Source of the DNA: Psammoneis japonica | Taxonomy: Eukaryota | Reading direction: 5' to 3' | Assembly: GCA_008632985.1 (NCBI GenBank) | Contig: QPGO01000082.1 | Span: forward strand, 124,001 to 188,000 | DNA length: 64,000 nt | In this document: piece by piece, positions 14,655 through 56,853 of the stretch | Layout of the letters: each line of letters starts with the position of its first letter | Numbering within the stretch: position 1 is the stretch's first letter | Position numbers and translations under genes: made by a program | Notes under the pieces: model-generated | The model's database searches: none | What the model was told of the DNA's origin: nothing | Seen by the model: the letters and a program-made list of their open reading frames with translations, nothing else

Positions 14655-15989
14655 TCACGAGCGAAAAGCTGCAAACATTCTAGTTGTACGTAGTCAGAGC
14701 AAAATATGTGGATATTGAAGCGAATTGCTATGAGCTAGTATATCTTGTTGCTTGTGACCTAGCAACTGTTGTGTACTATGATGTTCAAATGCTCCGTTTG
14801 GCTACTGCTTCGAAAACAGCTCGTCGCGATTAGTGATCCCACAGCACCACCTCTGTACTCAGATATGTGTCGCAGTCGATTATCATTGTGTAGAGGACTT
14901 GATAAACCACTCGGTCAATATAGATGCTCTTGTTATGAAAGGGTAGTTCCGGCAAACCAAGAGAACGTTTCCATCAATTCCCGGATGATGATAGCCGCTC
15001 TCTGTGTGTATTGAAACTGAGTCTATGGTGAACGGAACAGCAAAATGGGACCCAGTTGGTTCATCGCAGTTCCCGTGATCTCCGTCAACTTCCTTGCTTA
15101 CTTGGCACACCCGACCTCCGTTCTTGCCCATCACTCAAGGCTTTTTCTTCAGTTGCCGTGTGCCTCAAAATGCATTGAGCGTGGCCTTTGGCAGCAAATG
15201 ATTGACTTGTCGGAAGTAACCTGGCAGATCCAGCTTGCAATTTGTAGAGCATTCAGAAACGGGATGATGTGCCTCAAGACAAACAGCTAGAGTGGCTGGG
15301 CATTGTCTCTGTCCCTCGATTCCAATTGCTTCATGGATTCTTCCACTCACACAACCTCTTTTGTCGAACAATGACAATTTTTCTGTTTTGCTCTTTTGCC
15401 AATGCAATGCCTCGATGCCACACCATCCAGATGCTGAGACACACCTCTCATTCAACCTTGCCCATGTGTCTGAAATGACAGACACAGTCCAAGTCATCAA
15501 ACACAGGGGAACACTCAATGTTCCACCACACAGCACTCCTCAAAAACACTCAAACATGCCACTTTTAAGTGCAATTGAACCAGCAACTGACAACACCTGT
15601 TGTTTTGCTGCTGAGTCCAATGCTTCACTTGAGCTGGAAAGTTTGAAAATGCAGACTCATGAGTTGCTTGGGGGGGTGTTGTGCCAAACAAGACCTTTCT
15701 CCAAAGATGACCAACATGAAGCAAAGCATCTCAATCAACCAGCAAGCCAAAGGGTCAATTCAAGTGCAGCTAGATGGGCTGGTGCACCACCATCCAAACA
15801 GATCTTTAAGAACAAGACCTGTCAAGAGAACAAATGAGAGAGAGGCAGCAACATGCGAGAGTTTTTTTCCTCATCATCTCATCAACTGCAGGGCTCCCAA
15901 AGTTCTTGAAAGCACAGACCTGCAAAATGGCAGTGGTCATTCCTCAAAAACTCCTTTTGGGGCTGTGGTGCTTGCTTGTCAGAGTGATG

Positions 15990-16900
15990 AAGACTCAGCA
16001 CAAGAACCTGTGGCTGCTGCAGCTTAAAATGCATGACAAAATGAACCCTGAGTTGGAAGCCATGCTTTGCTCTCTTGTGACAAAGATCTGCAACAAGCAC
16101 GTGGCTGGCACAGTCAAACACAAAACAGAGCATTCAATGGCTGCATGTGTGGAGCTCAACACAACAACCCACAGCTGCTGCAGATCAAAACAATCAAAAG
16201 TCAGTTTGGTTTTGAGGTGCCTTGCTTTGCTGGAGTCTCTGCTTTGGCACAAGGATTCACAGGGAAATGACATTTTTGCACACAGCCATGAGGTGGCACA
16301 CAGCAAAACAGACCACTCAATGGCAGCAAATGGAAATGCAATGCAGCAACCTGTGGCTGCTGTCAACCAGACTGATCAAAATGAGGTGTTTTGATTTGGA
16401 GGCCATGTTTCTTGTGCTGCACCACATCTTTTTTTGGCAAAAATCCACAGCAAAACAACATTTTATCATGAAGCCAAGAGGCCACACAGCCAGCCAGAGA
16501 CCACCCAATGGCAGCACATGCAAACTCAACACAACAACCCATGGCTGCTCCCAATCAAAACAGTCAAAAATGGCTTTGACTTGAGGGCCTCATTTTGCCA
16601 TGATTTCTCCTCTTGTTGCATGGGGGTCTGCAAGAACAAGACAACAGTTTTGCACAAAGCCACAAGGGGTGCAGCTGAATGCAGCAGGCAGCTCAATGGC
16701 AGTGCAGCACAGACACTCAACACAGCAAGAACCCAAGGCTGTCAAAATGATTGAAAAGCACTTTGACTTGGATGCCTCATTTTGCCACAACATCTTCTTT
16801 GGTGAAAATCCACAATGCAGAATTTTTGCAGCCACAAAGCAAGCCACAAGACAGTGCAGCAAAGTGGAGTGCTCAACAACAGCACAAAGAGACTCAACAT
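15990..16900. repeat. Degenerate ~185-bp tandem array (~5 units)
   Basis: Recurring caatggc...ctcaacacaacaacc...gctgct...aaaa...tttgac/tttgat, with caatgg near 16136, 16318, 16506, 16695. Confidence 0.65.
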
Positions 16901-19900
16901 TGAGCACAATCCTGCCAACCCATTGTGCAAATGATTGGATTGTGTGGAAGCCATTGAAACATCATGTTTTTCTTTGCACCCCCACACTTTCTTGGCTGTT
17001 CTCACACAGCCACACATTGCATGTTGGAAAACACCATGTTGCGCTGTTGTTGCAGTGTGAACCTTTCTTTGCCAACAAACAAAAAGGGCATCTGATTTGA
17101 ACTTTTTGGTGGCAAATTTCATTCTGTGGCTCAGCTTGGATTTCAGATGAACTCTTGTGTTGAGAAGTGTGTTGCTCAAGCACTTCAACTTCTGCACCAC
17201 TGCAAGCTTTCTGCAGCACTTGTGGGCTTTTTTTCTCCAGTGGGGGGAGCTTGCCCCACAGATGCACTGCTGTTGTCCATGTCAATGTGATTTGGGTCCA
17301 CATTGGAGAAGGTTTTGTCTTTGCTTGATTTCCTGTGTCGCTTTTTTCTGGAAGAGCAGACAAGCAGGTGCCATGGGCGTGGGCATGGCTGTGATGTGTG
17401 CAGCAGCTGCTTCTTTCAAGAAACTGGCAACAGGCCTTTCTCTCCTTTTGTTGAGTGCTTGCTTGACCTCTGACACAGTGTTTTTCCTCTGATCACCTCT
17501 CCTTTTGGGAAGAATTGCAACAATTCTTCCCAACATTGGTGTGTTGAACATGCGCACTTTTTGATTTCTCAAAGGCTTGGCGGAAGCAAGCTGCTTTTGT
17601 GTTCCACACAAATTGTGCCAGCCACTTCACATGGACAAAATGGAGCACAGACAACAAACAGCTCTGCAGCAGCTGCCACTCAAACTCTTTCTCTTTGACA
17701 TGGCAGGCATGACAGCAAAGGACAAAAAATGCAAGAGCAGTCAAAGCAATTGGGGCAGAAGCAAACACTTGAAGAAGCAACTCCAAAAGGTTCAGAAGGC
17801 AGTTGGGGAGGCTCAAAAGCAGCAAGGTGTCTGTTGGGGCGAGGCAGGTCATGCCCTTTCAGATGCCCTGGCTGCTGTCCAAAATTGGCAAACCCAACAA
17901 CGCCAAATCTGTCTTTGCTGCTTTCATCCAGGGTCACAACTGGGGCCTGGCACATGTGGAGATGTGATGAAAACATGTGGAAGGAGCTGGTCAAAGATTG
18001 TGGTGGTGACCCTTGCACACAAGTTGTGGCTGGCAGGAGATCTTTGCTGACAAAACTCCCCAAGAACAGAGTGCACACTCACATTCTTCCTCCTGGTGCT
18101 TCCTTCAGCCATTGCTGAGCACTGGCTGGTGCACAGACTTGCACACAGCAAGCAGGGTTGCAAAACACTGCAAGAGCCGGCAAGCATCAGCACAGCTGGC
18201 CAAGCGCATGGCTGGCATGTGCAGTGTGGGCCTGGTGAGTGGCTGTGGCATTGGAGAACAATGGGGCCACAGCAGATTTCTACATCCTGGTGCAGCTGGG
18301 AAGATGTGACAAGGTTCTTTTGCAAACTCATCTGGAGTGTGGACAACAATGGCTTGGTGGCCTGTGCAGCTTTGCAGCAGCAGTGTTGCACAGCCACTCT
18401 CACATTTCTCAGAAAAACTGCTGCACCAACAATCTGCCACTGCCAGTGGACAACACTCTCTCAAGTCTGTTGCAGCACCAAGCCACTCATTCACAGCACA
18501 GCATTGTTGGACATGATGTGGTGTGCAGAGCCTTTTTTTTAATGCTGTGTGGCCAAGGAGTGGGCACAGCTTCAGGGTCAACATTGCAAATGGAAGAGTT
18601 TTCATCATGCATGGGTTCAAAGCAGCCAGGTTTGTTGATGTTTTTGCCAGCTTGCTGACACTCTGCAGAGGATGATGAGGAAATGCCGCAACACACTGCA
18701 GCTCATCCTCAGCCAAGCCAGCAAGCTGCAGATAAACTTGAAGGGCTTGTGTGGCATCATCATGACAGAGGCTTGCAGGACCTCTGCAATTCTGCCATTT
18801 CTGCTGCCACCTGGAAAAGACCTTTTCATGCCATCACAATGGCAAATGCTCTTGAGTTGCCAACATTGAGGTGACTCAGGAGTGGCAGTCACACAAAGAG
18901 GGAAATGCAGGCATTGTCAGCTGCTGCCAGCAGAAGCTGTGGTGTGTGAGTGACACAAGACATCCCTCCACTTGCCACATTTCTCAGGGCCATGAGGACA
19001 AAAAAGAAAGTCACTCTCAGAGCATGTGAGCCATGACAACTCAAGCAACATTTTTGTCTCTTTTTCAGCTGTGATGGTGACCCACTTGAGCAGAGTTGCA
19101 GACAGCTGATGACCATCAGCCACAGCCACAAAGAACCTGTGCCAGAAGCCTTTTGATCCCACATGGCTGGTTGACAGCATTGTCCCTTGACCAAGTGTTG
19201 AGCTGATGAGCTGCACCCATTTCTTTTCCCACATGTTGGGGTGCTGGTCTAAGACATCTCTGTCTGGAGTTTGTGCCTCAGCCAGCTGACAAACCACAAG
19301 AATGGGTGCCAGCAGGCACATGCTGGCAACATTGTTGTTTCAAGCTGAGCAGTGGCAGGGACCCTTGCACAAGCACTGCAGACTTCCTTGGCAAAACTTT
19401 CAATGGAAAATTGCCATCAGCACCCAGAGCATTGAAGAACAATCCAATGGTGTGACAGTGAATGAGTCAATGAAGCATGGCACCAGTCATGCTGGGCAAC
19501 AAGGAGGAGTCAGTTTCTCCCAGACAGCCTGCTTGGACTCCTCCAAACAGCTGAGGACTGGCATGCCCACCTGGAGAGCTGCACTGTCTCACAAGAGTCT
19601 CTTTGGAAATGGCTGTTGCCTTCAGAGAAAGGCCCATTGCAAGCAATGGCCTGCTCATGAAGTGTGAGCTTTTGATCAAAGCTGCCACTCTGCCTTGACA
19701 AGGTCAAGAAATCAGCTGCAGGTTGCAAACAAGGTTTGTGGGGCAAAGTTGTGTCAAAAAAAGAATTGTCAGAGAGCCAACCAGCTCTTCTCCCACAACT
19801 CCTGGTTCAAGAACTTAGTTTGCCTGCAGGGCAGCTCTTTGGGAGCCGTGGAGCAGAGTCTGGCTGTGTTGCACAGAAGCCATTTTCTTCAAACACAAGA

Positions 19901-19909
19901 AGCAAAAAT

Positions 19910-20270
19910 TGCTGCAGCATCTGGACAAGTGGGAAACATGAGAGACCCAGAAGTGTGTCCATTGAAGTGATGATGCTTTGGATCCTGACTTGGTGGATTT
20001 GGCAATGTTCAAAAACAAATTTTCATTTGTCACTGATCTCACCAACTCTCTTTTTAGCTCACTCTTTGGAGCCAATCATCTGGTTTGCACTGGTTTGCAT
20101 TGTGGCACCAGTGCGCACCCTTTGTTGCCCCTTTGCATTGCAAGAACAAAGTCATTGAGAGCTTCCAGGCAAACCACAGCCACCACAGCAACCAGGACAA
20201 GTGCAACAAGTGGCACAGGAAACCTCAGAGGATTCCCTTTTGGCAAGAACATTGACTTGTCTGTTCAACA
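19910..20270 (+). repeat. 5' LTR of the Copia element
   Basis: Aligns with 25377-25732 (catctggacaagtgggaaa...gtcattgagagcttccaggc...ttcaaca). Confidence 0.85.
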
Positions 20271-23200
20271 TTTCCTCAAAAAGAGTGAGTCAAGAGCTGA
20301 GTTCCATGTGTCCATTTGAAACAGGAAGCCTGCATCATGAGCAGCAGGGGGGGGGTGGATTGAGCACCAAAGGCCATGGTGGTTGCCAAGTGGCAGAGGC
20401 CAGAAGTCATGCCATGACAAAAACAAGAAGACAGACCCCAAGAAGAGCTTCAAGCACCAGAAACTGAGTTTCACCTGTCATCAATGAACAGCAACTCACA
20501 CAATGCAACATTTGAAGACATCAAGGAAAAGATCATCAACCACATCCAGAAAGAGTGTGATCAAGAGGATGAGTGTCACTGAATGACTGCCTGTCAAGAT
20601 TTGAGAACAAAAGAAGATGTTGGATGGTTTCATCATGAATGCCAAGGAGTGCAAGGACTGCATCAACCCAGTGGACAAGACAGCACTGACGGATGCTGCA
20701 TTCCAGACATGGACCACTCATCTGTTCATGGAGAAAAGTGACAACTGCCACTGCAAAAGTCTCAAAAAGAGCCTCATGAGAGACCACAGCCCAGGAAGAG
20801 ACTTGCATCCTAAGACCCTCAAGAAGACAATGGATGTGCTGCTGAGCTGTCCAAAAGATGACCGTCCACACAAGAGATGAAGCAAGAAGAACAACAAACA
20901 TTTGAACAACAAGAAAGAAGACAAAGAGCACCAGGAATGACTGGCCCAAGAACCTGCAAGACCAGAGTCATGCACAGAGTGGCAAGACAGCACACCATTG
21001 TTGTGGTTGGCCAAACCACAAGTCCCCAGACTGCAGATGAAAGGATGAGATTGCACAGAAAGATTGGTGCAAGAAGTCTGGCAGGAAGTCAGATGTCAGG
21101 GGAACATGGTCATGCACAGAGAGACAAAGACAATTCATCAGTGAGCAGCAACAATGCAAGCATTGATGCCAAAGGTCAAGTCAATCAGCAAGTTCTGGCA
21201 GAAGAAGTGTTGCATGGCATCAAGGGTTCCAAGCAGATGAACAGGCCGATGAGAGGCTGGAGACAAGTTTGAGCCAAGCCAATGCTGACATTGAGTCACA
21301 TGAAATCATCCTTGACAATGGCTCTGCCCTTGGCATGGCAGCAAGCCTTGGTGTGGCAGCAAGCTGGAGTCTTGTGCACAATGTGAAACCAGCAAGGATC
21401 AAGATTGACCTGTCTGCAAACACAAGAATGGACAATTTGGACAAAGACTACACTGTGCCAGGATGGGGTGACATGAAGCTTTGATTGCAAAATGTGACAG
21501 CAAACATCCCAAGTTTGAAAGATGTGAAGAGCAAGTGCTGTGCCACACACAAAAACAGGGCGGTGGATGAGTTCCATCTGCTGGACAAGAAGTCTAGCTA
21601 ACAAGTCACTGGTCACCATGTTCAAAGTCAATGACATTGGGCTGCACACATTTGCTCCAAGCCAGCAGTTGCTTGACCACATGAAAGAACTCCAAGAAGT
21701 TGAGTCACATGTGAGCATGCTGTCAAAGGAAAAGAAGGTTGCGACAAAGAAGACCAACAAGAAGCACAGAAGTGCATCAAGAAATGTCACTCCAACTGTG
21801 AAACAGATTGTGAAAGGCCACACCAGATGGGAGGCAGAAGGAACACCTGGTGTGAGGGATTTCAAGAAACTTTTGTGGTCCAATTGGGTGAAGAACCTGT
21901 CCATCATCAATGAAGATGCAGGTGGAATTGTGGCCACATGGGGTCCACCGACAGATGCACTCAAAGGCAAGACCAAGTGTGCACCGCATTCCCACACAAG
22001 GAACAATGTCATTGCACTGCCACCTGTGATCTGCAAGAAGCAGAGAGAAGGTGAGACCCTTTGCATTGAGGACATTGTGGAAGTGTGTGATGTCAAGGTG
22101 CTGCATGCAATTGACAAGACAATCACGTGCAGACAGAGTGTGTGGCTGTGGTTCAAGAAGCAAGAAGACATTCACAAAGCCTTGGACATGATTCTCACAC
22201 AGTGCAACATGGCATCATTTAAGATTGACTTTGTGGAGTGTGATCCAGAGTTTGAGGGCATGCTGGAGAAGTCGCAGATGGTGTGAATCTGGAGCTGATG
22301 TCTGCAAATGCCTGAGATCATTTTTACAAAGTTGAGCACAGCATCCAAGCCATCAAGGAGCAAACATGTGCAGCTGCTGTGCACCACATGCCACACAAGA
22401 CAAAGCATGAGTTTTGCTCAACAGCACTTGCCCCTTAAAGGCCTCAAAGCATTTGGCCAGAAGGGGCATGATGCCTCACAGAAAGAGATTGAACAGTCAC
22501 ATGACTGAGCATGCTTTGCACCAGTGTCAGTCAAGGACATGACTTTGACTGAGAGGACCAAGGCCATGGCAGCCTTGATGTTCCCACCCAAGAAACAAGA
22601 TGGTCGCACCACAAAGGGGCAAATGGTCCACAGTGGCAAACTGACCCAAGAACAGCTGGACAAAGATGAGTCAGCCAGCCCCACTGTGTCCCTGGAAGGG
22701 ACATTTGTGAAGGTGTTTGTTGATGCCCATGAGGGATGCAATGAAATGAGTGCTGACGTTCCCAGTGCATTTGTGCAGACTGCTGAGATGCTGGAGCCTG
22801 GAGAAGGTGAAGACCGGATTGTGATGAAGATTGCAGGTGCACTGGTGGACATGCTTGTGAGCATCAATCCCAACCTGCACAGACCTCATGTGGTCCTGGA
22901 AAAAGGCAAGAGAGTCCTTTACATCCAAGTCATCAGAGCTGTCTGTGGAGTGCTTGTCGTGGCTCTACCGTGGTGCAACAAAATTTGAAAGAACTTGGAA
23001 AAGACAGAGGGTTTAAGTTCAACCCATGCAATCCCTGCATTCAGTTGATGGCAAGCAGCACATGATTGGATTTCATGTGAATGACCTGTTGTTGAGCCAC
23101 AAGAATGACAAGTTCCTGGGCTGGCCAAACAAGATGCATGGCAGCCACAGCAAAGTCGTCACTGCATGAGGGAAGAGACACAAATGTCTTGGCATGACCC

Positions 23201-25376
23201 TGGACTTCAATCAAAAAGGAAAAGCAAAAGTCAACATGGCAGACTGCATTTGCAAGATGATTGATCAGTTTCTGGAGAAGACAAAGAGCACAGATTCTGC
23301 TGTGACACAAGCCAGGGAGAAGACATTTGACACCAGCAGAACAAGATCACAAGACAAGAAGGCTCAGACCTTCCACACACTGGTGGCCAAGGGACTTTCC
23401 TGTCCAAGAGAGGCCAAATGAATGTGCGCCCCACTGTCACCACATTGTGCATGCAAGTGCAAGCTCCCACCAACAAGGGTTGGTGGCTAAAGCAAGCCAG
23501 TCTGTTGTCTCAAGTGCCTGAACTGTTCAAGAAACAAAGTTGCTGCGTTGAGTGTGAAGGACCCCCAAGTTGTCAAGTGGCATGTGAATGCATCATTTGT
23601 GGCACACCCCAATTTTAAAAGCCACCATGCCAGAGGAGTTGTGACAATGGGCAATGGAGCAGTGCAGGCCATCTCTCAAAACACCAGAAGCTCAACACCA
23701 AAAGCAGCACAAAAGCTGAACTTGTTGGAGTTGACGATGCCATGACTGTGATGCTGTGGACAAAGCTCTTCATAGAGCACCAAGGGCACCCAATCAACAA
23801 GAATGTTCTGTGATGCCAGGACAACAAGAGTGCCATCCCACTGGAAACCAATGGGCACAAGGGTGCCAGGAAGCAATTATGAGCACTCAATGTGTGGCAT
23901 TTCTCTGTCACCAATCAGATCAAGAAGGGCAACTTATGAGCACAGTGTTGTCCTGCCAACAACATGCTTGGAGACTTCATGACTGAGCCATTGCAAGGCA
24001 AGAAGTTCCAAAAGTTCAAAAGAGCCATCATGGGCTGTGTCAACTTCAAGCATGACAGGCATGAGACCTGTTCTTTGTGATGTCAGACAAGAATTCTGAT
24101 GCATGTGGGTGAAAGATCTCTGACACTTCAATGTTCAGTGCAAACGTGGGGCAAGAACAAGAGCCCCAAAACCCTTGCACATTGATTGTGTCAAAGAAGA
24201 GCAACAACGGAGGGGGAACTTGGTGCCATTCCTGGCAGTCAAGGACAGATGGACAATTGATTGTCAGACCTGGTTCCATCCTTCAAGGCAGACATCAGGA
24301 CAGCCGATGACTGAGATGCAAGAACACGCTTGCTGTCTTGATGCAACAGTGTCAAGTTTTGATCTCAAGAAAGAGATGAGCTCAACACTTGCCTGATGAG
24401 CATCATGACAATTGCAACCATGGACCCATTTGAGAGGCAACATGTGGCCAACTTGTGTCAATTGATGATTGACACAGACAAGAGGAACAGCAGAAATGGG
24501 CTGATGGAATTTGCAGAGGTTCAAAGTCAGCCACCAGTTTGGACAGAATTGTGGAAACAAAAGCATTTTGCTGTGGTGGAATTGTGTGAGAATGCAGTGA
24601 GACATTGGACGCATGCTCAATTGAGGTGCATGACCCCTGCACTGCACCAATGTTCTCCACACATGATGATGAGAGCATCATGGATGAAGCAAAGCTGCAT
24701 GGAGACAATGATGTGCACAAGACCAGAGAGCACTGGCAAAGGTTTGCACATGTTGTCAAAACCACAACAAAGATGACAGAGTTGAGAGAAGCAAACTGGC
24801 ACTGGACCAATCTCAAACTCACATTGGACAAGAGTCAGCTGTCCTGCCTGCAGTGTGGACAAACAAGGGGCATGTCATGGCCCACTTGGAATGCTCAGTT
24901 TGAAGGATGACAAGTGCAGCAAGGTTTGCCATGGACCAGTTTGAGACAAGAATGGAGATGTCATCAACGCAGGCAAGTCAGTGCAATTTTTGGTTGTGAC
25001 ATCAATGAGGCAAGGTCCCATGCAGTGCAGACCTGCCAGAACATGGGATTCTTTTTGGCAGATCCCAAGGTGGTCAATGGTTGGATCATGGATTGGTTGG
25101 ATGGTTCACATGAGAGGGGCTCAGTGGAATGGAATCACCATGCCTGCATTGCTGAGTTCATGGAATGTGTGCAAGACATTGCCAACACATTCAAGGATCA
25201 AGAACATGTTGGATTTTGCCAATGAAAGGCATTGTGCCAGCTGGAGGTGCACCAAACCCCAAGATGGTGATGACCAAGTGGGTTGGGCCAGCAAGTTTGT
25301 TGTGGAGATTCCTGATGGGATCACTCCAATGTGCGAGGAACAAGCACTCCAAACATTGACTGTGGTGGCAAGAGTG

Positions 25377-25732
25377 TGTTGGACATCTGGACAAGTGGGA
25401 AATGCAAGAGACCTGGAAGCACATCCATTGAAGCAACAGTGCTTTGGATCCTGACGTGGCAAATTTGGTGACACTTTACAAACCAACGTGTGCTTGTCAT
25501 TGATCTCACTGACCCTCTTTTTATCTTGCTTTTTGGAGTGCATCATTTGGCTTGCACAAATTTACATTGTGGCACCAGTGCATGCCCTTTGTCACCTTTG
25601 CATTGTAAAAATGAAGTCATTGAGAGCTTCCAGGCACACCACAGCTGCCACAGCAACCAGGACAAGTGCAACAGGCAGTGCAGGAAACCCCAGAGGACTT
25701 GCTTTTGGCAACATTGACTTGTTGGTTCAACA
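25377..25732 (+). repeat. 3' LTR of the Copia element (TGTT...AACA)
   Basis: TG...CA termini; homologous to 19910-20270. Confidence 0.88.
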
Positions 25733-26429
25733 AAGTTGGCCTGTCACTCAGACAACCCTTCACTCAGAAAGAGCTGGTTTGTTCTTGATTTTCTAAAAGC
25801 CACCTCTGGTTGTTTGGGCTGTCAACCCAAGCAACAGATTTTTGCACATTGCAAGCAAAAGAGTGCTGTGCATGATGGTCTGGAAGATGGAGATAAAGCC
25901 ACTGGGTTGCAGCTGTGCTTGTTGCAACCCAAATTGGCTGGTGGGCATTGGTCGTTTGCTTTCTGGGACAGCATGGTAGACATCACAAGCTGTCAGAGCT
26001 GGAGTGGTGTGAAATCATGGTCATCCTTGTCTGCCTTGCACTTGACAAGTTCCCAGAGAGTTTCACAAAAGTGGTCCACCCAGAGCCAACCCACAAGAGC
26101 CAGATGATGAGCAGCACCTCACACTCCATTGCTGCTTGCAATGAGATGCAAAGGGACAAGACATGGTTGACCTCCTTAAGAGGAGCACTGCTTGCCAGGC
26201 GTTTCAAATGGCACAAGACATGGCAGAGAGTGCACCCAAAAGGAAAGTGAAGTTGGCAACACCAGCTTTGCAGCAGCCCCCTGTGACACCACTGCCTGTG
26301 GCTGCACCAAAGAGCCAGGGTGAGAGCTTTGCAAGGCGTGCAACCAGTGCTCACCAGAGCCAATGCAAGGTGCCAAAGTGCCACATTGAAAGGAGAAGAG
26401 CAGAGGGAGCCCTCAATTTTGTTTTTTCT

Positions 26430-36430: not shown

Positions 36431-36479
36431 TGGACCCAATGGTCAAGGCAGTGTGGAGGAAGGACTGGGGTTTTGCTGG

Positions 36480-39230: not shown

Positions 39231-39251
39231 TCTCGCGTCGAAAAAGGGCGG

Positions 39252-42607: not shown

Positions 42608-42664
42608 GGTGCCGTGTCACTTCAACCTGTGTTGTTTTGCCTCGAAAAGTCCGTTCACTCCGCA

Positions 42665-44944: not shown

Positions 44945-45289
44945 TGACGGAAGTGTTGTCGCGTTGTTTTTGTCTCCGCGGAGGGAGGATCATCCCACGG
45001 CAATCTCAGTGCGAGTTCTCGCGTAGAAGTGCGTCACGTGCCGTGCCAGCTCGTGCATTTGAATTGCACGGACACACAAGTGCGGCAACGATGAGAAGCA
45101 GGCCGAGATTCAAAACAAATTTTATCGCCCAAAGGCGTCTCATTGTTTCAACGCGTCTGCACATCTGTCCAAAATGACTTTGTACGTTGCTCCATGCGCA
45201 GGTAGAGGCAGCACGCCGCGTTTGAAAATTTCGCACGCACAGAGGGCGCGACGGTAATTTTACGCATTCTGCGCACGTCACAGTTTGGT

Positions 45290-46225
45290 TTGGAAATGCG
45301 ATGTCTGGTCGAACCCGCTGCAAGCAAGGTTGATGTTGCCACAAGGTTGGATGCGATGAACCATCATTGCAGAAGTGTTGGGGAGTTTTGTCTTCAAACG
45401 GCTCCGGACTCCGCGTTCCAGAGCAGGCGTGTCTCCGGAGACGGAAGCGGATCTTCGCACGGCGGCGAAGTTGGCTTCGCTTTGAGCAGCGAAGTGTTTT
45501 TGAACGAACGCCTTCTTGGCGTGAATCACACCTGCGATGCATCTGTCGACATGGGCGGGGGAGTTGCCGGACCCAGCATCGGGCTCAAGTTACTTCGTCG
45601 CCGTTGCACCGTGGTGAGCATCGAGGCCGACCACGATCATCACCAAGAGGCTGTGCGTTGGGCTCATCGTGCTGGCCTTCGCTCGAACGGCGGGTTGGAG
45701 TTGATCAACAAGTCATTCTTGGACAAGAGGCTGGCTCCTTTGTGGAAAAAGAAAGGACTCAAGGTGTTCTTCAACAACTGCAACTCCCGCATGGTCGACG
45801 ACAAGAACACACAGCAGAAGGCAGAGGCGATGCTTTCGAAGTTGTGTCGTGCTGGGACCGTGGTGGTGGCGCTAGATCCGCTGTTCGCGTCGCACGCGGC
45901 AGAGTGGATGTGCGAGTCCTTCACGGCGGATTGCCATGATGGCGACTTTTTGTGGCACAGCGGAGACGTGAAACATCTCGTCTTCCACAAGTGCACCAAG
46001 AAAGAGGAGACTTCTCAGTCAACCAGCCAGCACATGCGACGTCCCACTCCGACACACTTGGAACGGAAGCATTTGCCCGTCGCGAAACAGCCAATTTTGC
46101 TTAAGAACTCAACTGAACTGTTTTTTTACCATCACTGTGCTAGACGTCACACGCTAGTTGCTCCACTCAATTCGCCATTGCTTCGCGGTAATGACAAGTT
46201 GTCGTCGGAGATGGTGCACACTTGA
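45290..46225 (+). pseudogene. Class I SAM-dependent methyltransferase, DOT1-like
   Basis: SHGGE, DMGGGVAG, VSIE, KSFL, VFFNNC and AGTVVVALDPLF appear in the same order as DOT1 YGE/DLGSGVG/GVE/GDFL/FVNNF/GxRIVSxxPF. Confidence 0.6.
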
Positions 46226-46312
46226 AGAGACAGAGGAAAGCTGAGTTGTAATCGACACTTGGTTTGCCAAACATTTACAAATTTACACTGCACCGGCAAA
46301 AAAAAAAACAAC

Positions 46313-47050
46313 TCAGTCTTCATCGCTGTCCTGAAGCACCAAGTCGTCATCGACGTTCAGGTCAACTTCGCAGTTGAGCTCGACATCATTGTCGGCCTCT
46401 TCTCCAGCTTCTTCTGCCGGAGCTCCAATGAGACGACAGAGTTCCACAGGCAACGACCCCTCGTAGAAGTGGCTGTGAAGCAAGTTCTTGTTTTGGGCAC
46501 ACCAACCGATGTGAAACTGACCACCTTCCTTCTGAAGCTCGGCAAGCGCCACCTCGTTGCCAATCACTTCGGACCAAACAGCATCCTTCATCCAGAAGAA
46601 GTCGTCTTCAACGAAGACCTCGGTGTTGTTCTCAGGGTCATCGTTGAGCTGCTTCGCAATGCACTTCCCGAGGCCGCGCACTTTGGCATCGGTTGGGACT
46701 TCTTCGAGGAAGATGAAGAAGAGACGCACGGCGCAGTTCTTGGTGTTCGTCTGCAACTCGCCTTCGTGAACCCACCTGCCAGCGCAAGGGTGGAATCTGA
46801 CTTGAACCGCCCACGGAGTCCTGCTGCGAAGGTTGTCAAACAGAACCTTCTCCGACCAAACATTGGCCAAAAGGGGATTCTTGGCTTGGAGACAAAAAAC
46901 GACGCCTTTCTTGCGGCCGACAGTGACGGTGGCGCAGCGCAGGAGGGCGTCCTTGTCGGAATGGCTGCCATCGTCAGAACCGGCGGATTTGGAAAGCTTG
47001 AACCCATGCTTGGCAAGGCAGTCTTCCGGTTTAAGGTCGTCGTCGGTCAA
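46313..47050 (-). pseudogene. Eroded ORF of unknown function (cargo); 5' part probably continues to ~47300 in another frame
   Basis: 245-aa coding-like ORF with acidic tail; nearly Tyr-free. Confidence 0.55.
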
Positions 47051-47729
47051 GCCGTTGGTCTTGCGGGCGGACTTAGTTTCTTCAACAGAGCATCAGAAAA
47101 CTTCGTCTTTGCCTTCTTCTGTTTGGTTTTGGCGACTTTGGCTTTCGCAGCCCGGGGAGGTCGTTGTGTTTCTTTTGCATGCCATCGAATCAGTCGGAGA
47201 GAAATTGTGGGAACAAAAAGTGCGATCGTTCAGAAGTGCCAAGAAAGACCCAGCAGAGCTGCGTGCATCATGCCAAGGAGAACTGGCAACATCAGCAACT
47301 AGATCCAAACACGTCGAACTGCAACAAGGTGACCTTCCAGGTGTCAGCACTTGCAAGTGGTGCATGGATTCAATTTGAACAAAACAGACACAAGGATCGG
47401 AGCACGCAAAGTCGCACCAAGTTTGCTGAAAATGCGTAAAATCACGTGCAATTCCGTCCGTGCTTCATGTGTGTTTCAGCCGTTGCTGCCGCGCGGCCAT
47501 CGCGCACGAAATCTAGTCGCCAAACGGTCGACGCCATCGCTGTCACTGCTGTGCCGGTGGTTGGCTAAGGTGGGCCCATCACCCATTTGGATGATTCGCG
47601 CGCACTTTGGAAACACGAATGACGTCAATCGCACTGTCATTGCCACATGACTGACTCAACTGCCCCGCCACTCGTTAAAGCGTGATTCTGCGGAATTTGC
47701 GTGAAGCTGCGCCCACCACCAAGATTGCC

Positions 47730-47831
47730 GAAACAACTTGAACAAGATCCGAATCTTGCCCCATGGAATGTTCAGAGCAGATGGTCGAAACAACTTGAAC
47801 AAGATCCAAATCTCATCCCATGGGATGTTCA
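47730..47831. repeat. Two-copy repeat, 57-bp period
   Basis: gaaacaacttgaacaagatcc.aatct...cccatgg.atgttca twice. Confidence 0.85.
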
Positions 47832-47984
47832 ACGTCGACGAAACTAAGTGGGACATCGCACGTCTGGTGCAAAGAAGGATGTGGGAGGAACGCACACGTC
47901 ACTCTTCCGTCGAGGTGAAAGAGGCACACTTTCGTCTCACTTTTTTGTGACAGAACCTTTGCGCAAAGGGAAACGAAAAGCATC

Positions 47985-48680
47985 CAACTGCGGTGATTGG
48001 GCCACACCAATCGCAGTTCTCAGTTCTCACAGTGACCTGGTGACGCAGGTTGTGAGATGACGCACAAGCTCAGCTGCGGTGACTGGACGACACCAGTCGC
48101 AGCTCTCACAGAGACCTGATCGCACAGGTTGTGAGAACACGACACAATGCTGCGGTGATCGGACAGCACCAATGCAGTTCGTCAAGCAACTACTCACTTG
48201 GCTGTGGTGACTGGACGACACCAGTTGCAGCTCTCACAGCGACCTGATTGCACAGGTTGTGAGCAAACAACACAGTGCTGCACCTCGTAACGCAGGTTGT
48301 GAGATGATGCACAAGCTCAGCTGCGGTGACTGGACGACACCAGTCGCAGTTCTCACAGAGACCTGATCGCACAGGTTGTGAGAACACGACACAACGCTGC
48401 GGTGATCGGGTGGCACCGACGCAGTTCGTCAAGCAACCAACCAACTCGGCTGCGGTGACTGGACAGCACCAGTCGCAGCACTCACAGCGACCTGATTGCA
48501 CAGGTTGTGAGAAGACGACACAGCGCTGCGGTGAACGGACAGCACCGACGCGGTTCGTTGATCAACTGGACAGAACCACTGCGGTGACTGGACGACACCA
48601 GTCGCAGTGCCACAGGTGGTGAGAAAACACACATCGCTGTGGTGATTGGATGGCACCGATCGCAGCTTCACGGTGATCGC
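47985..48680. repeat. Complex minisatellite of alternating hairpin units upstream of Rep-helicase
   Basis: Units ctgcggtgactggacgacaccagtcgcag and ctcacagagacctgatcgcacaggttgtgag; higher-order period ~247 bp. Confidence 0.9.
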
Positions 48681-48752
48681 ACTGAAAAAACAACTGTTTT
48701 TGCTGAGCAACTTCTTGAAATTTGTTGAGTTGAAGCATCAGCTTAAATTAAA

Positions 48753-51700
48753 ATGGACGAGGCCAACTCCCGTGTTTGTGGTGCAATCAACAGAAAGTTT
48801 GAGATGCTTTGTCTGCATGGAGACGGAGAATTTAGACCACACGTGTGTCCAGTCTGTGATGTTCTGCTGAAACCTAGAGAAGTTTGCCACTTGCCGCTCG
48901 AAACATTGGAATCAGCAAGAAACTTGCTCACCCCTTCAGACTGGAACAGCGCATCTGATCGTCTCAAGTCCTGCTGCGCTGTGGAGCATGAAGATGCTGA
49001 TTGGATCAAAGACCTGCTGCTTTCTCCCCAGCCCAATGCGCAGTGCAGGAAGACAGACGACACGTCGACGGATTCACTTGCTGCAGCGAATGCCGAAGAA
49101 GCCTGGGAAGAGCCGTTGCGCCAATGTGCGCGACAGCGAACAACTGCTGTTTCGGTGCCCCGCCGCACGAACTGTTGTCTCTGACCGAAGTAGAACCAGC
49201 AATGCTCACACCAGTGAAAACACACGGGTGCTGCTTCAGTCACCTGGCGGCAAACAGAAGAAGCTTCAGGGAAGTCTGACGTGCTACAAAGTCAAGATGC
49301 AAAGCATCGCAAGAACTGTTGTGCACTTCGACGTGCTGAATTTACATCAGAATGTGATCACACTGATGACTGGAAAGATGACTCCGGAGCGAAGACAACT
49401 TGTGCGTTCAAAGAACAGAATTAGGACGCACTGCATGCTGAGGGCAATGGAATGGCTGTTGCACCACAACCAAGAGTGGGTGCACCAACAGACAAATCTA
49501 GACGAAGTTGGGCGTAATCTGCGGAATCCCGCACTTGTCGACAGCACCAGCAAAGAAGAAGGAGAAAATGCGAACATTGAGACCTCAGAGTCATTTCATG
49601 TTTACTTTCCTGATGGAACCATGTCTCCTGCGACCGGTGGTCAGTGCAACCTGGACTGCTTCAAAGATCTTGTGCACGAAGCTGCTGCCAATGGATTTGA
49701 TTTGGAGGTGCAAGCACAGTTGTCCAAAGAATCTGCGAGTGATTTCAAAGGCAACAACTTCATTGACGCATGTCTGCTGCAGTTTCCTTTTGGCAGAGGA
49801 GGAATCAATGAGACGAGAATGAAGAAAGACGGAAGTCTTGCAGATGGCACCAACCTTGCACACTGTGCCGACCACTTGGCACGGATTTCCCAGCCTCACT
49901 TCCATGAGCAGCTCTTTGTGTTAATGTGCTGCAACTTGACAATGAAGCAAAGGATGCTGCAGAGCGCAGGGTGGAAAGTCAGGGACAAGAATCAGGCTGC
50001 ACAGTTTGCAAACGAACTGACAGTGGATGATGTGGATGGAGCTGTTTGTGATCGCAACTTGGGCGAGAGAAGAGATTGTGGACTTGGGCACCACTTTTTG
50101 CACGCACTCGACATTGTGTCTGCGTCTCTGCCACACAGTGACAAAGCAGCAAAGAAAATGAGGAGAAACGCCGAAACCCACCAGCATCATTTTGGTCAGG
50201 GTGGCATTTTCTTAACCGTCAGTCCGGACGATGCAAATTCGTTTCTTGTGCAACTGCACTCGGGTGTCATCCTGGACCCAAACGAAGACGTGACACAACT
50301 GACGGACGAAATTCTTGCTAGCAGGGCCAAGCAACGTAATGAACTGCGTCCAAAGTTTCCCGGTCTAACAGCCTTTGCATTCGAGTGCTTGTTTGACATT
50401 GCAATGGAAGAGGCAGTGGGTTGGGATCTGAGTGCCAACCAACCAAGAGAAAACTTTAACTTCTGCATTGGCAGGCCAGCCGCATTTTTAGCCGCAGTTG
50501 AGGAGCAGGGACGTCTGACAGCACACGGACACATGCAGATCTGGTTCGCATCGATCAACAATGCAAGAGAGAAACTGCATTCGCCAATGAGACAGATCCG
50601 ACGCGAAGGTGCTGAGCACCTTGCCAACATGGTTCAGAAGATCTGCAGCACGGAATTAATCTGCAGCGAGGACTTCAGCACTGGCGCGTTGCGCGAAGCA
50701 TTCGATCATGACTGCACAGTGCCAAAAATGCATCGCACCTCTCCAAAAGTGGCAGACGACCAACAGCTAAGAAACCTGAGGCACAAAGACGGCCAGCAGT
50801 CAAAGAACGGAATGTTTGCTCATTGTCATCACTGCACCAAGTGCTGGACAAACGTCGAGTTTGTAGAAAGCTTTTTGCAGTCACGACACCGTGCACCTGG
50901 CCTGACTCGCCATCCAGACAACCATGCAAAGCGACTAAAAGCAATGTGTGTGCAACACCAGCGAAGTGGTCCGCAAGGGACAACAGAGGCATGTGTGCCG
51001 GACGCAGCTCACAACCATCACATGCATGTTATGAAGTCGTGTTTTCCCAAATGCGTGGAGTTGCGTAAAATGCATAAAAAAACCCCACACGAGGAACTGG
51101 ACACGCAGTCAAGGAAAAGGAAACGAGAGGAGCTCAAACTGGGTGACTGCCATCACAGGCAACCAGCTGCTTCGTGTCCAAATAATTTGGCAAGGAACGC
51201 AGATGACACTCAGACAAAGTGGTTCAGCTGGGATGGAACTTTTGCGCATCGGCACGTGAAGGAAGTTGTTCCGAAGAGGAGAAAGTGTGATGCTTTTCAA
51301 AACGTGTCGTGCCCTGCAATGAGCAGATCAAAACTGACATGCAACACAAACATTGCTTTGTTGATGCCTGGACCGTCTGCTCAATGCATGATTGAGCACA
51401 TCCTAAAAGACACCCAGAAAGATGACACTGCATCGTACGATGAAGTGCTTCGAACTACAAACAGGACAGCGACGGAATTGCGGAAACACGCATCTGATGC
51501 ATCGGAAGCAATCAGATGTCTCACATGGGGTGCTCACTCGCACAACAAGACGAACATCATTGGACCACCACTTGCGTCTTACACAACAAGGAATGGAAGC
51601 CATTTCATCGAATCTCATTTGACCGCATGGTGCCCCTTGAAAGACATTGTCAGCACACTAGAAAGAGATGAAGTGTCTGCGACTGCAGCCCATTTTGGCG

Positions 51701-54480
51701 ACACACCGTTCTTCCAATGCCAGGCCTTGCACCACCTGTGTCGTCCAACAGCACTGGAGAATCTCAGTCCATTTGCGTTTTTTAGTGAATGCAAAGTTCT
51801 TTGCAACACAAGGAAAAACGAACACGGCATGATGATGTTCGACAACAGAGCGCACAGGCACCCATCTCACAATTCAACGAAGAACAAGTTTCTTCAAGGT
51901 GTCAGACAGCGACAGCAACCGCGATTGTCAAAAGCACTTCAGTGTGATTTTCCTGATGCAGCCAAGTTTGGCAGTTGCCTTGTGGATCCGCAGCAACCAA
52001 CAACACTGGACAAAGAATTGTGCTGCAAGTTGGCATTGGCCTTGTTTGTGCCTCACAGAACAATGACAGAACTCAAACCAACAACCCATGCATGCCTGCG
52101 TGAATTCCAACTCTCCGCAGCAGCCGGTGTTGTCACAGAGGAAAACTTGAACTTCTTGCAGAACCCACAGGATGCCAAGTCCAACTGCCTTCGTCTCAAA
52201 AGCACATCTGACGATCTGCAAAGAAAGACGGAGCAATTTAGACCTGCTGACGTTGCGTTTGACTGTTGCGAAAGTGACGAGGAAGAAGGTCTTTCAGGTG
52301 CTGTTCAGGGTCAACTGCTGGATGCACTCTTGGAAGAAATGGCAGAGCAGCCAGAAGACGATGACATTGGGTTGAGCGACCAAGCAGTCATTCCTGCGCA
52401 TTTGAGCGGCAAACGTGCAAGACAGAAAGGTTCGCACATGGGTGGTTGCAAATGCTTGGCAGACATGCACACTGACCCACCAAACGAGGAAAGCCAGGTT
52501 GATGAACGACAACTTTTTGAGAATCTAGAGGGCGGCGATGACACCGACGAGGAAGACCAGAATGAAGGAGTGCAACAACACATCCACAGCAGACCTCTGT
52601 CAAGAGACGACATTGTTCGAGTGACACTGACTAGAATGCAAAGAACAAGAAGGTCGTTTGAGGATGCAACAGGTTTGGAAGAACACGTCGATGCACGTCA
52701 AGCAAACGGATCTGCAGCAAGCATCGTAGACTGGGCTAGGAAAGCAAGACTGGATGGGCAACAGCAGCGTGCCTTTGAAATTCTAGCAGGAACCTTTGTG
52801 CTCACTTGCTGCCAAGACACTCTTCAAGACGAGACGTCACGCAATGGACTTGACAGGAGAAATGGCAGACACGAATTCGCAACAAACCTTCGCCGATTGA
52901 AGAAACTCGTGGAAGTGCAAAGACGCAGAACGTTGCAACTTGTGTGTTTTTTACATGGTGCAGGTGGAAGTGGCAAATCAACCACAATGGACCTCGTCGT
53001 GGAATGCGGAAGAGAGCATTGCTCACTCATTGAGCAGCCGTTCACAACAAGCACAATCAGAGTGACTGCACTGACCGGAGTGGCTGCGACTGTTCTCAAA
53101 GGGGACACAATCCACCGAGTTGCATGCCTCATGAGAAGAAAGCAAACAACCGAAGAGCAAATTGAAGCATGGTCAGACACGAGACTTTTGGTGGCAGACG
53201 AGATTTCTTTTGCAAGCAAGAGAGAACTAGAAAAACTCCATGAGAATTCAACAGCATTGAAGAGCGAATTGAGCAAGCCGCACGGTGGTGTCAACATTGT
53301 TTTCGCAGGTGACCTCAGGCAACTAGAACCAGTCGGAAAAGGAGTGAAACCACTGTGCAAAGATGTGTGTCCCGAGTTTCACGAGTGGATCAACTGCTGC
53401 ACAGAACTTCGTGGTGCACACAGGTTTAAAGACGATCCATCATGGGGAAAACTGCTTGAGAGATTCCGCACTGGCAAGATTGCAGTTGACGATGTGGAGT
53501 GCATCAACAAACGAGCAGTTCAGAATGAAGATGATCTGCCCAGTGACCTCCGCCATGCCACGCACGCAAATGAGGACAGAGATGCAATTGACACTGGCCC
53601 ATTCGAAAAAAGAGTGGAAACACTGCATGGAAGAGATGGAGACGTCCTTGACTCAATGTTGATTTTCAGTGACGACTTGCAGGTGCAGAATGGCACGAGA
53701 CTCTGCCAACCATTTCCGGTTTGCAACAGCTTCTGGAACAACTGTGGTGAAGGAGACGTCATCATGCAATCAGGAAGAATGGATCCAGTCTTACGAATTT
53801 ACAGAAGATGCAGAGTCATGACACCTTTCAACGAAAATGCAGCAAACGGTCAAGCAAACGGAACGCAAGCCACTGTTGATGAGGTCGTTCTCAAACCAGG
53901 ACAGGAACCAAGACTGGCAACTTTAGACAACAACATTGGCATTCCTGCTGCACTTGCCAGTCAGGTAGACCACGTTGCATTGGAACACTGCAACAAAAGC
54001 ATCGACCCCGCGAAGTTTTTAGTTGAGCCAAAAACAAATGCTTTCAGGGCTTGCATCGCCAAGCCCAGCCTAATTTTAGAAGGCGACAAACAAAGGCACA
54101 CTTTCCAACTGAAGGCAACCCAGCTGCCGTTTGTCATCAACAATGCCACTGCAGGGCACAAACTGCAAGGGAGTGGAGTCCCGCAGTTGTTTGCACACTG
54201 TTGGAGCTGCACTCAGAATTGGGTGCATGTTGTGCTCTCCAGAGCAAAGACCAGAGAAGGGCTGTTCATGCGAAAGCCACTGAGCAAGGACCTGCAAAAA
54301 TGCAAGGTCCCAGAAGGCTGCAAAGCCTTGATGAGACTCATGAAGGAGAGAAGCGCCACGCATTTTTCTCAGCAACAGTGCGCAGAAATGTCAATGCAGT
54401 GCGCAAACACCAGATTGGGATGCTCAACCACTGTGCAACCACTTGGCGACCCCAACTGTAAAAATGCAGAAATTTCGTAA
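48753..54480 (+). pseudogene. Helitron Rep (HUH)-Pif1 helicase; frameshift/deletion near 49.0-49.2 kb, then a long open frame
   Basis: IFLTVSPDD, VEEQGRLTAHGHMQIW (HUH), QCMIEHILK (eroded YxxxY), HGAGGSGKST, LLVADEISF, FAGDLRQLEPV, HRFKDD, ATAGHKLQG, HVVLSRAKT. Confidence 0.93.
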
Positions 54481-54615
54481 AATGAAATGTTTCGATTAGA
54501 TCAGCACATTGCGCAGAAATCCACACATGCGCCACACAACGTCGAATGGATTTTAACCAACAAACCAAGAAACGCGAACGCAGCCGTCACAGAAAACGTA
54601 GCAACAGAGAAAACA

Positions 54616-55016
54616 TGGATTTGCAACAACAAACAAAGAAGGCAGATGAGCCAAAGAAAACTGGTGAGGACAAGAAAAAGGTGCAGACACGTGCAGAACT
54701 TCTGCAGTCATTGATGAATGAGGAAGACGAAGAGGAGATCACCTTGGAAGAAGCAAGAGCGGCGTTTGACCTTGCCTCGGGAAATTTTGATGTCACTTCT
54801 GCACTTGTGCAAGACAACACAACAGCGGACAGCCATCATGTGGAAACAACGGTCGTGCCCAAGGATGATTCAACCATGGAGGAGCTAAAGGCAGCACACG
54901 CAGCGGCGATTCCACAGCGGTCGGGGAGATTTTTCACCGAGGAGGAGATGGCGGAGCAGGAGAAAGAGCAAGCAAAGTCCCTTCAGAAGAAGCATGGCCA
55001 GAAACAATGGAATTGA
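54616..55016 (+). pseudogene. Short acidic/coiled-coil ORF downstream of RepHel
   Basis: MDLQQQTKK...EEDEEEITLEEARAAF; coding-like composition only. Confidence 0.35.
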
Positions 55017-56853
55017 GCAAGTCACAAATGACTGTTTGGCAAAGACAACCGCATCAACACGCAAAATGCACGCACATGGACTTTCACTTGAGCCGCCGCG
55101 GATTGAGCATGGCCACAAACAAGGACTGGCCATTTGGCAAAGAAGCTGCAACAATGCGCAAATTCGCACATTTCCACACTCACTCAATCCAACGCAGCTT
55201 GCCTTGGACAACATCAACGTGCACAACTAGACAACATCAACATGCACAGACAGCCTCATGAAACCTCACAGAAGACAGAACGGTCAGAAGCAAAACAACC
55301 AGCACCACGCACCAATGCACGTTGGTCATGTCGCGTGGGTCGCGCAAAAGTGCACACCGAAATGACCGTCATGTGTCACAATTAATTCGAATGCCCGGCG
55401 CAAAATGCAGCAAAATGACTGGTGCAGGCAATCGTCATGGCTCCATTTTCTGACAGTGGCGAGGGCGGCAATCCAAAATCTTTCGGCTTCAGACTTCGAT
55501 CTAGAGAGTTCCACCTGAAAGAGGAGGAACCAATTGGCAATGTGTTTGAGTGCGTTTGTTTATAATTATTAATTTTAAACACAAGAATTGTTCGATCGCC
55601 CACGAAAACGAGAACATCAGGCACCGCGATCGAAGCACGACGATGACGGCAATTGCGCTGTCTCTCAAAATTGGCCCAGTGGCACGAGGGACGAAAGCAC
55701 ACAAATCAATCTGCACTGTGTGACGATAATAAAACCAATGAGTGTCCCTCGTGAGGTGACACTTTGCAACTCACCGCTCGTCGCGAACATCATCATTGTC
55801 GCTCGTGCTTTTGTCGTGTTATTTTCTGTCGCGACCCGTCAAAAACGCGTAAAAACCCGGAAAAGACGTGCGAAAAAAATAAGCCGACGGCCCGCCTTAA
55901 AAAGTGGGCCGGTGATCTGACGTTATTTCCTCGGCATCTTTCATTGGATAAGAATATCGCACGTGCGTTCGTTTCTTTTCGTGAGACACTTCTGTCATTG
56001 CGCTTGTTGTTCTTTCTGCTCCGCTCACACAAGAAACACGCCAACATCACATCATCGGCAAAGACAACGACTGGAGCTCACAATACGCAGATAACAAACG
56101 CACCCTTATCGAAAAGCGGCTTGAATTGCACGCTTAGCCAATACGGTTCAACAGCAACAGTAAGAGCGAAACAACAAACATCAAAACGGGACAGAAAAGT
56201 GAGTACCTTTTGGTTGACCTCTCTAATTGTCGGTATTTTGGGCGCTTGGAAGCACCTTATTGCAAACAAACTCCCATTCGTATGTTATGGTCATGTTCTG
56301 AGTTAAAATTGCGTTTCTGGCATTTGCGAATTCATTTCTGGCAAGACTTTACATTGACGACGTGTTTTATCGTGGATGTGTGCGAGCTACGTTGCGCATC
56401 GTGAAGCGTTCTTTTTGTGCGTTTGTGCGCATTTCTGAGCTTTTCGTGGGATACATGAGTAACAAGAACGTGAAAGTCTTCACTTCTGTTGCTGGCGTCT
56501 TCTTCAGGCTGGTCGTTCGTCAAAAGTGCCGTGATCTACGCCATGGTATTGAAAAACTCGGTCTGTGTCGGCGTTGTGTCACATTGACGTCACAGACTTT
56601 CCCTTTTCCGAAGTACGAACGCATTTCGTTCTGTGCGAGAAATTTAGTATTGTTTTTTCTGAAGCCTTGCCCGACGATCGTACTTGGGGGCAATATGTGA
56701 CGGCAGATCTTGTACTGCGCGACGTATTTTATTTAGGGCCTATGATGGTTCACGTTTTACTGCAACAACTCTGTGATTTTGATGGATGGCCACATCATTT
56801 TGCGATCAAATAAACACTCTCCTCACAAGCTCCTCACACTCTTCTCTTCAATA

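Follow-up and report, generated by a model that had tools for sequence, protein, structure and literature searches.

We analyzed a 64-kb window of DNA from the diatom Psammoneis japonica (64,000 nucleotides, positions 124,001 to 188,000 of contig QPGO01000082.1, assembly GCA_008632985.1); coordinates below are those of the window. Between ~15.03 and 55.65 kb, the dinucleotide TpA (TA) is near-absent, except in an island at 28.3-30.2 kb that carries a PLAC8-family gene. The depleted domain contains a probable Copia-like long terminal repeat (LTR) retrotransposon, a very high-copy short repeat, a mutated copy of the PLAC8 gene, and a Helitron-family unit. The changes that removed TA converted it to TG or CA, and they are best explained by a TpA-specific mutator that acted on the DNA in place.

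The TpA-depleted domain and its borders

Based on the ratio of observed to expected counts (O/E) in 1-kb bins, TA stands at 0.00-0.13 over 15001-28000 and 31001-41000 and at 0.11-0.26 over 41001-56000. In undepleted DNA, the same measure is 0.51-0.74 (left flank), 0.61-0.70 (island), and 0.44-1.21 (right flank). CpG (CG) is near-absent too, but only over 15.4-38.9 kb. We distinguish two older blocks, A and B, from a younger block at 39.0-55.65 kb. Block A (15030-28300, with an N gap at 26430-26783) has TA O/E of 0.00-0.13 and CG O/E of 0.02-0.26 per kb, and its CpG loss spans ~15.4-28.0 kb. In block B (30180-38900, with an N gap at 35295-35300), both dinucleotides are near-absent. When pooled, the older blocks (21,042 nt) contain 61 TA (O/E 0.045) and 105 CG (O/E 0.083), and TG and CA are in excess (O/E 1.76 and 1.80). 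The younger block (16,651 nt) contains 140 TA (O/E 0.148), with CG at 0.80, TG at 1.51, and CA at 1.46. Normal DNA of the window (25,052 nt) contains 1067 TA (O/E 0.628), with CG at 0.98, TG at 1.15, and CA at 1.13; at this normal O/E, ~850 TA would be expected in the older blocks and ~590 in the younger block. Raw counts of TG and CA are about balanced with mild local differences, and strand bias carries no usable signal.

The borders of the domain are sharp. On the left, TA is dense as far as 15024. At the left border of the island, there is no TA in 28132-28302 and then 20 TA within 140 bp from 28303; at its right border, TA is dense as far as 30104. On the right of the domain, TA is back to normal from ~55727. 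An earlier note on this DNA, made from the sequence alone, had described near-absent TpA and excess TpG and CpA in a transposon-rich domain, with the flanking genes and an embedded island spared. The pooled ratios and the borders agree with this description. The observation in the earlier note held up for TpA, but it had missed the separate erasure of CpG in the older blocks.

The loss of TA also erased the stop codons TAA and TAG in 15000-56000, leaving long spurious open reading frames (ORFs) on both strands, and many of the 86 ORFs of at least 150 codons in the window fall inside the depleted domain. A Pfam search of 144 ORFs of at least 100 codons plus 44 shorter ORFs of the domain recognized only the PLAC8 copy besides the Helitron protein described below.

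Mobile elements and PLAC8 genes

The Helitron-family repeat unit (~14.2 kb, 41450-55653, + strand; TA O/E 0.11-0.26, CpG near normal) has a summed word depth in reads of 1,750-5,700, equivalent to ~30-95 copies, which falls to ~60 at 56010. Its ends are approximate and bracketed by read depth and by joints: 41491-41494 is joined to 55532-55588, and 17 contigs diverge behind 55653. No characteristic Helitron termini (5'-TC, 3' hairpin plus CTRR, with insertion between A and T) were recognized by eye at the unit ends. A 20-nt AT-rich patch with five TA lies at 55560-55580, inside the right end of the unit and between joints at 55532 and 55571-55593, perhaps as junction filler or through a later insertion.

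The unit encodes a RepHel protein, in which a Rep nuclease of the HUH type is fused to a helicase, in an open frame of 1,869 codons (48871-54480, + strand), with Pfam matches to Helitron_like_N (E 1.2e-9), PIF1-type helicase (E 3.1e-13), and AAA_30. Full-length relatives share 31-45% identity. Tyrosine makes up 0.27% of the protein compared to a mean of 3.36% in 29 homologues. We defined conserved Tyr columns as those with Tyr in at least 80% of the 29 homologues (n=20); in these columns the window protein keeps a single Tyr, the rest being 10 Cys, 7 His, 1 Ser, and 1 Phe. For the other types of conserved residue, 73-100% are retained, apart from Met (2/3) and Val (46%), and the Val losses include five Val>Ala, which correspond to GTA>GCA. 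The Rep motif has QCMIEH in place of QYxFKY and thereby lacks both catalytic tyrosines; the HUH motif is preserved. With both Rep tyrosines replaced, the protein is predicted to be catalytically dead. Tandem units at 48.0-48.7 kb alternate CA, TG, and CG between units, which adds little. In the ~7 kb upstream of RepHel (41.5-48.8 kb), there are several ORFs of 200-500 codons without a Pfam match, as well as tandem repeats of 57, 64, 99, and 129 nt.

The second large element lies in block A, at 19918-25732 (+ strand). It has LTR-like direct repeats at 19918-20270 and 25384-25732 (spacing 5466; 78% identical by blastn, 79.5% by alignment) and an integrase-region ORF (21528-22283) between them. 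This ORF has 128 relatives at E<=1e-3; among the 12 relatives scanned, RVT_2 lies downstream of the matching segment in two, and one has a weak rve match. Pfam found no domain within this element in the ORFs of the window itself. With a Copia-type RVT_2 in two of these relatives and a weak integrase match in one, the element is probably a decayed Copia-like retrotransposon.

A short repeat resembling a short interspersed nuclear element or a miniature inverted-repeat transposable element lies at 39252-39701; its 112-nt terminal direct repeats occupy 39252-39363 and 39590-39701. The reads show a summed word depth of 23,000-34,000 for this repeat (within 38.67-40.0 kb) against ~60 for single-copy DNA, which corresponds to a family of ~400-550 copies. 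The copy in the window is TA-depleted: at five of six listed variant places in 39.4-39.6 kb, it has TG or CA where 42-79% of the family depth has TA. A tRNA-derived origin of this repeat is unsupported, as ARAGORN finds no tRNAs.

The unmutated island (28300-30180, + strand) consists of the PLAC8-family gene (Pfam E 3.9e-15 on 28949-29611) and an AT-rich upstream region, all with normal TA and CpG. ATAT and TATA contexts are intact from 28303, and the DNA from there onward looks like the promoter region of the gene. A mutated paralogue of this gene, a pseudogene copy with its 3' flank, lies in the younger block at 40033-41113 (+ strand) and still matches PLAC8 (E 4.1e-9). The word depth of the paralogue is 95-124, or about two genomic copies. 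In one read-derived contig (depth 68), 39309 is followed immediately by 41453, omitting 2,143 bp with the short repeat and the PLAC8 copy; either a presence/absence allele or a different locus may underlie this joint. No RNA run was listed among those that contain this DNA. Coverage by run X2 is limited to the PLAC8-like part plus a few fragments, and we drew no conclusion about expression.

Block B includes an inverted repeat (arms 34828-35028 and 36780-36983, ~70% complementary), around which 33000-39000 shows a mirrored and very strong G/C skew. In 2-kb bins, there are 670 C and 336 G from 33001, and 786 G and 285 C from 37001. The arrangement suggests that a strand-asymmetric element was duplicated in inverted orientation.

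In the normal right flank, a gene for a CRT-like transporter (61058-62311) has best matches of ~60% identity overall, and its best named relatives are in Amphora, Thalassiosira, Cyclotella, and Fistulifera, which marks the window as diatom DNA. The same flank has tandem repeats of 40/81 nt at 60388-60629, and the 60-61 kb bin has the highest TA O/E of the window (1.21). Rfam at gathering thresholds gave no matches in the window, and ARAGORN no tRNAs.

Direction, timing and context of the changes

The PLAC8 paralogues allow a direct comparison of normal DNA (29034-30037) with its depleted counterpart (40033-41113). They are 90.5% identical. The 46 TA of the island copy correspond in the domain copy to 21 TG, 18 CA, 4 TA, 3 other dinucleotides, and no CG. 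None of the 135 TG or CA in the island copy appears as TA in the domain copy, so the change runs one way. Read from the normal to the domain copy, 50 of the 95 differences are A>G or T>C, and 39 of these are at TA. In addition, 14 of 46 CG in the island copy are TG or CA in the domain copy. Outside TA and CG, only 36 of 814 sites differ (4.4%), with 11 AT>GC and 6 GC>AT transitions. TA was lost from the domain copy after the duplication. Each loss took a single transition per site on either strand, which is what the earlier note had read from duplicated sequences (39/46 here). It had also argued that C>T processes, namely repeat-induced point mutation (RIP) and decay of 5-methylcytosine, cannot yield TA loss, and the depletion of TpA with enrichment of CpA and TpG bears this out.

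The LTR-like repeats give a second view of timing. The two LTRs of one element are identical at integration. Among 77 TG/CA sites in this pair, 16 are TG<->CA double differences, and these therefore represent independent hits on ancestral TA or CG after insertion. Across copies of the repeats covered by the read-derived contigs, 463 of 501 variable places are transitions.

TA loss depends on the flanking bases. In the depleted domain, 4 of 201 surviving TA are in RTAY compared to 335 of 1067 in normal DNA, and 109 of 201 are in YTAR compared to 166 of 1067 (chi-square 174, p 1.5e-38). The paralogue pair follows the same order: TA was kept at 0 of 12 RTAY sites, 1 of 22 mixed sites, and 3 of 11 YTAR sites. 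The younger block gained 9.4 YTGY/RCAR tetranucleotides per 1000 and only 0.1 RTGR/YCAY. Because YTGY/RCAR was gained and RTGR/YCAY hardly at all, it is likely that the edited A carries a 3' pyrimidine.

TA loss and CpG loss are two processes, since they have advanced unequally between the blocks and their borders are offset. By our arithmetic, CpG loss in the older blocks is ~12-fold ahead of that in the younger block, and TA loss in the slow context classes only 2-3-fold. At three borders, the TA-free zone overshoots the CpG-free zone by 100-400 bp. Diatom transposons are CpG-methylated, and CpG loss in the older blocks is probably the slower, ordinary decay of methylated CpG. This decay would account for the CG O/E of 0.08 there and the 14 of 46 CG>TG/CA changes in the paralogue, and it feeds TG and CA; however, it cannot remove TpA.

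The depletion that the earlier note described from the assembled letters is present in the reads as well, as read-derived contigs carry the depleted sequence at ~60x word depth. A public run contains 0.91 of the 31-mers sampled from 11001-21000, and as depleted DNA makes up 59% of this interval, the run must include most of that DNA. A 2,902-nt read-derived contig (depth 64) matches 38001-39271 except for five letters, and at two of the three listed differences it has CG in place of the TG or CA of the window. An 11,485-nt read-derived contig is an exact match to the right flank. Word depth is ~60 over depleted and flanking DNA alike (78, or about single copy, over 38001-38667 in block B), and the contigs reach 315 kb.

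The signature recurs outside this genome. Among 80 metagenomic loci encoding RepHel relatives, three have TA O/E of 0.03, 0.09, and 0.13, whereas the median is 0.63. These three (L003, positions 1-7761; L055; L038) are environmental contigs from different data sets and show Tyr>Cys/His replacement. L003 has an open frame of 1,882 codons in which 25 conserved Tyr columns hold 15 Cys, 5 His, and 1 Tyr, and none of its 13 surviving TA is in RTAY. Likewise, one of 120 database RepHel relatives (P0125) has a Tyr content of 0.8%, the next lowest being 2.5%, and its residues in the 25 conserved Tyr columns include 12 His and 7 Cys.

Comparison with known systems

The closest known process is in the chlorarachniophyte Bigelowiella natans, as reported in a preprint (Mettrop et al., bioRxiv 10.64898/2026.01.13.699255). 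In mutation-accumulation lines, 231 of 302 nuclear mutations fell in an integrated giant virus and virophage, at a rate ~1000-fold over background; all but one of the viral-insert mutations were A>G or T>C, and these were at TpA. TpA-poor, CpA/TpG-rich coding sequences were enriched for transposon domains. As the enzyme, the authors put forward an ADAT2-like DNA adenine deaminase. The preprint mentions neither diatoms nor flanking-base context.

The two cases share several features: A>G or T>C changes at TpA only, on either strand, with TpG or CpA as products; discrete foreign or mobile regions with normal neighbors; and long-term TpA depletion with gain of CpA and TpG, which in B. natans also extends to transposon-type coding sequences. 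They also differ. B. natans is a rhizarian and the host here is a stramenopile; the targets there are viral inserts, whereas here they are transposons and a trapped gene copy. Depletion is near saturation in the window (O/E 0.03-0.15), whereas the hypermutable viral region of B. natans is still at a Rho of 0.45. The hierarchy of lost RTAY and kept YTAR, with an overlay of CpG decay, is seen here and goes unreported for B. natans in the preprint. Finally, the B. natans rate was measured directly in mutation-accumulation lines, and the window offers only a historical footprint. This window is a diatom and transposon instance of a process described in 2026 only in B. natans. The earlier note knew of no description in diatoms; this still stands for diatoms, but a precedent does exist in B. 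natans. In the literature searched, whose coverage left out most subscription journals, the B. natans preprint is the one description of this signature, and no diatom counterpart turned up. The available part of a paper on diatom DNA methyltransferases mentions RIP only with DNMT4 (PMC9998398).

Fungal RIP is similar in that it is an in-place, dinucleotide-specific transition hypermutation by which mobile DNA is inactivated, with sharp limits and slight leakage into its neighbors. However, RIP makes C>T changes, chiefly at CpA, and thereby generates TpA, whereas here TpA is destroyed and CpA/TpG created. RIP also mutates both duplicate copies, whereas the island PLAC8 copy is untouched and 42-79% of the short-repeat family depth keeps TA at the five listed sites. 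The suggestion of the earlier note that the system is RIP-like does not hold in the sense of being triggered by duplication, given that one PLAC8 copy is unmutated and much of the ~400-550-copy family keeps TA at those sites. Targeting looks locus- or chromatin-based rather than homology-based.

The natural target of TadA/ADAT2-type tRNA adenosine deaminases, the family behind TadA-derived adenine base editors, is A34, which always follows U33, and bacterial TadA reads U-A-C. Such a native requirement for a 5'-T would fit a T-A-pyrimidine preference; in contrast, natural members of the family act on tRNA. For this family, activity on DNA is reported in just a few instances that the B. natans preprint cites (bioRxiv 10.64898/2026.01.13.699255).

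A probable TpA-directed mutator and its alternatives

Altogether, we favor, at a probability of about 75%, an in-place, DNA-level, TpA-specific transition mutator that acted on a silent, transposon-filled stretch of a diatom genome, probably by deamination, presumably guided by silencing, and perhaps in defense. In this model, each TA would be struck once, on either strand, to give TG or CA. The enzyme would deaminate the adenine after T in the DNA of silent, transposon-rich chromatin, and the resulting hypoxanthine would pair with C, fixing A>G. Because the TG/CA product lacks the 5'-T on both strands, it would be immune, which may account for both the saturation and the absence of TA>CG. Flanking bases would modulate the reaction, with R-T-A-Y fully erased and Y-T-A-R slow to react and contributing most survivors. 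Since one PLAC8 copy and much of the high-copy family escape, targeting would not be by homology alone, and silent chromatin or silencing signals are the more probable guide. The process would halt within ~100-400 bp of active or unique DNA, including the internal gene island. Proteins would be ruined by replacements such as Tyr>Cys/His. Under the genetic code, no A:T>G:C change introduces a stop, and dead elements would keep long open frames for this reason. As proposed for B. natans, the role may be genome defense. The enzyme is most plausibly a DNA adenine deaminase, which we name as a candidate from the sequence pattern.

Several points weigh against this reading. TpA is palindromic, and the sequence alone cannot tell an attacked A from an attacked T. 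The rule of a 3' pyrimidine is weakened by the paralogue pair, where sites with one such strand favor it by only 13 to 7. The evidence here is a past footprint, and ongoing activity has no support. The run that confirms the depletion has no recorded platform and is possibly the source of the assembly itself. The spectrum of copies against family rests on few sites, with 40 of 535 variant places listed. Moreover, many TA losses may be common to the Helitron copies and older than their copying, which we suspect because a depth worth ~30-95 copies comes with only ~500 variable places at a share of at least 10%. Shared losses and a dead Rep fit awkwardly with a purely in-place process; it is possible that copies with a dead Rep were multiplied by mobilization in trans or by segmental duplication.

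The palindromic symmetry opens the way to an explanation based on thymine, in which a TpA-directed modification of T (e.g. hydroxylation of the TET/JBP type) is mispaired or misrepaired to C. By that symmetry, T>C on one strand looks the same as A>G on its complement, and TA>CA and TA>TG are equally frequent in the paralogue (18 vs 21). Organisms with 5-hydroxymethyluracil or base J do exist, and in dinoflagellates 5-hydroxymethyluracil is enriched at TA. Still, turning T into a base read as C requires an amination-like change or error-prone repair, for which we know of no precedent as a mutator, whereas adenine deamination yields A>G directly; the B. natans authors too prefer adenine deamination (bioRxiv 10.64898/2026.01.13.699255). 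We therefore consider a thymine route unlikely. An RNA route, with ADAR- or ADAT-like A-to-I editing of transposon RNA or double-stranded RNA that is then fixed by reverse transcription and reinsertion, is much less probable again. To our knowledge, ADAR enzymes are confined to animals. A Copia-like retroelement is present, and ADAR usually prefers U upstream of the edited A, according to the same preprint (bioRxiv 10.64898/2026.01.13.699255), yet the depletion runs unbroken through the Helitron, the copied host gene and its flank, the short repeat, and the DNA in between and affects both strands about equally. The LTR-like repeats differ by TG<->CA as well, so the hits post-date integration.

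It is hardly credible that the composition is native to the elements, whether through avoidance of TA (because of a TA-cutting nuclease or TA-targeting insertions) or through GC-biased gene conversion among repeats. RepHel is open over 1,869 codons in a multi-copy family, and some TA losses are possibly common to the copies, both of which fit a native composition. However, an open frame is expected anyway where A:T>G:C changes create no stops, and the conserved and catalytic tyrosines are replaced by exactly the residues that a single TA transition gives. The host-gene copy and non-coding DNA are depleted to the same degree, A:T outside TpA is barely changed (11 AT>GC vs 6 GC>AT), and no TA turned into CG, an outcome open to general GC-biased conversion. 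An assembly artefact is unlikely too. Its specific form, in which modified bases of heterochromatin were miscalled as transitions (e.g. by nanopore sequencing at methylated sites), is one to which we give very little credence. Methylation-induced nanopore errors are indeed transitions, the pattern is limited to repeats that are probably methylated, and the confirming run may share its data with the assembly. Against this, contigs built from exact 31-mers at ~60x carry the depleted sequence, which noisy long reads presumably could not provide, and N gaps of variable size (354 and 6 N) point to scaffolding of a short-read or Sanger assembly. With five letters that differ from the window, the contig over 38001-39271 is no copy of the assembly, and the same signature occurs in unrelated metagenome assemblies.

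An in-place TpA mutator in P. japonica would extend a process known from one rhizarian alga (2026) to diatoms, which are major primary producers, and from viral inserts to ordinary transposons. The window adds that saturation is possible, that there is a flanking-base preference which candidate enzymes must reproduce, that gene borders are respected within a few hundred bases, and that the process is distinct from CpG decay. Since A:T>G:C changes make no stops and remove TAA and TAG, hypermutated elements resemble intact genes to annotation pipelines, and gene finders would over-call them. More tentatively, and at less than even odds, diatoms and probably other stramenopile-alveolate-rhizarian lineages may possess a dedicated DNA adenine deaminase of silenced chromatin that erases T-A-pyrimidine and is shared with chlorarachniophytes. 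If true, this would explain dead "ghost" transposons with long open frames and the footprint in environmental metagenomes. A natural double-strand DNA adenine mutator with a defined context would also be relevant to base editing. For the diatom itself, the pattern points to a little-known means of inactivating invading DNA.

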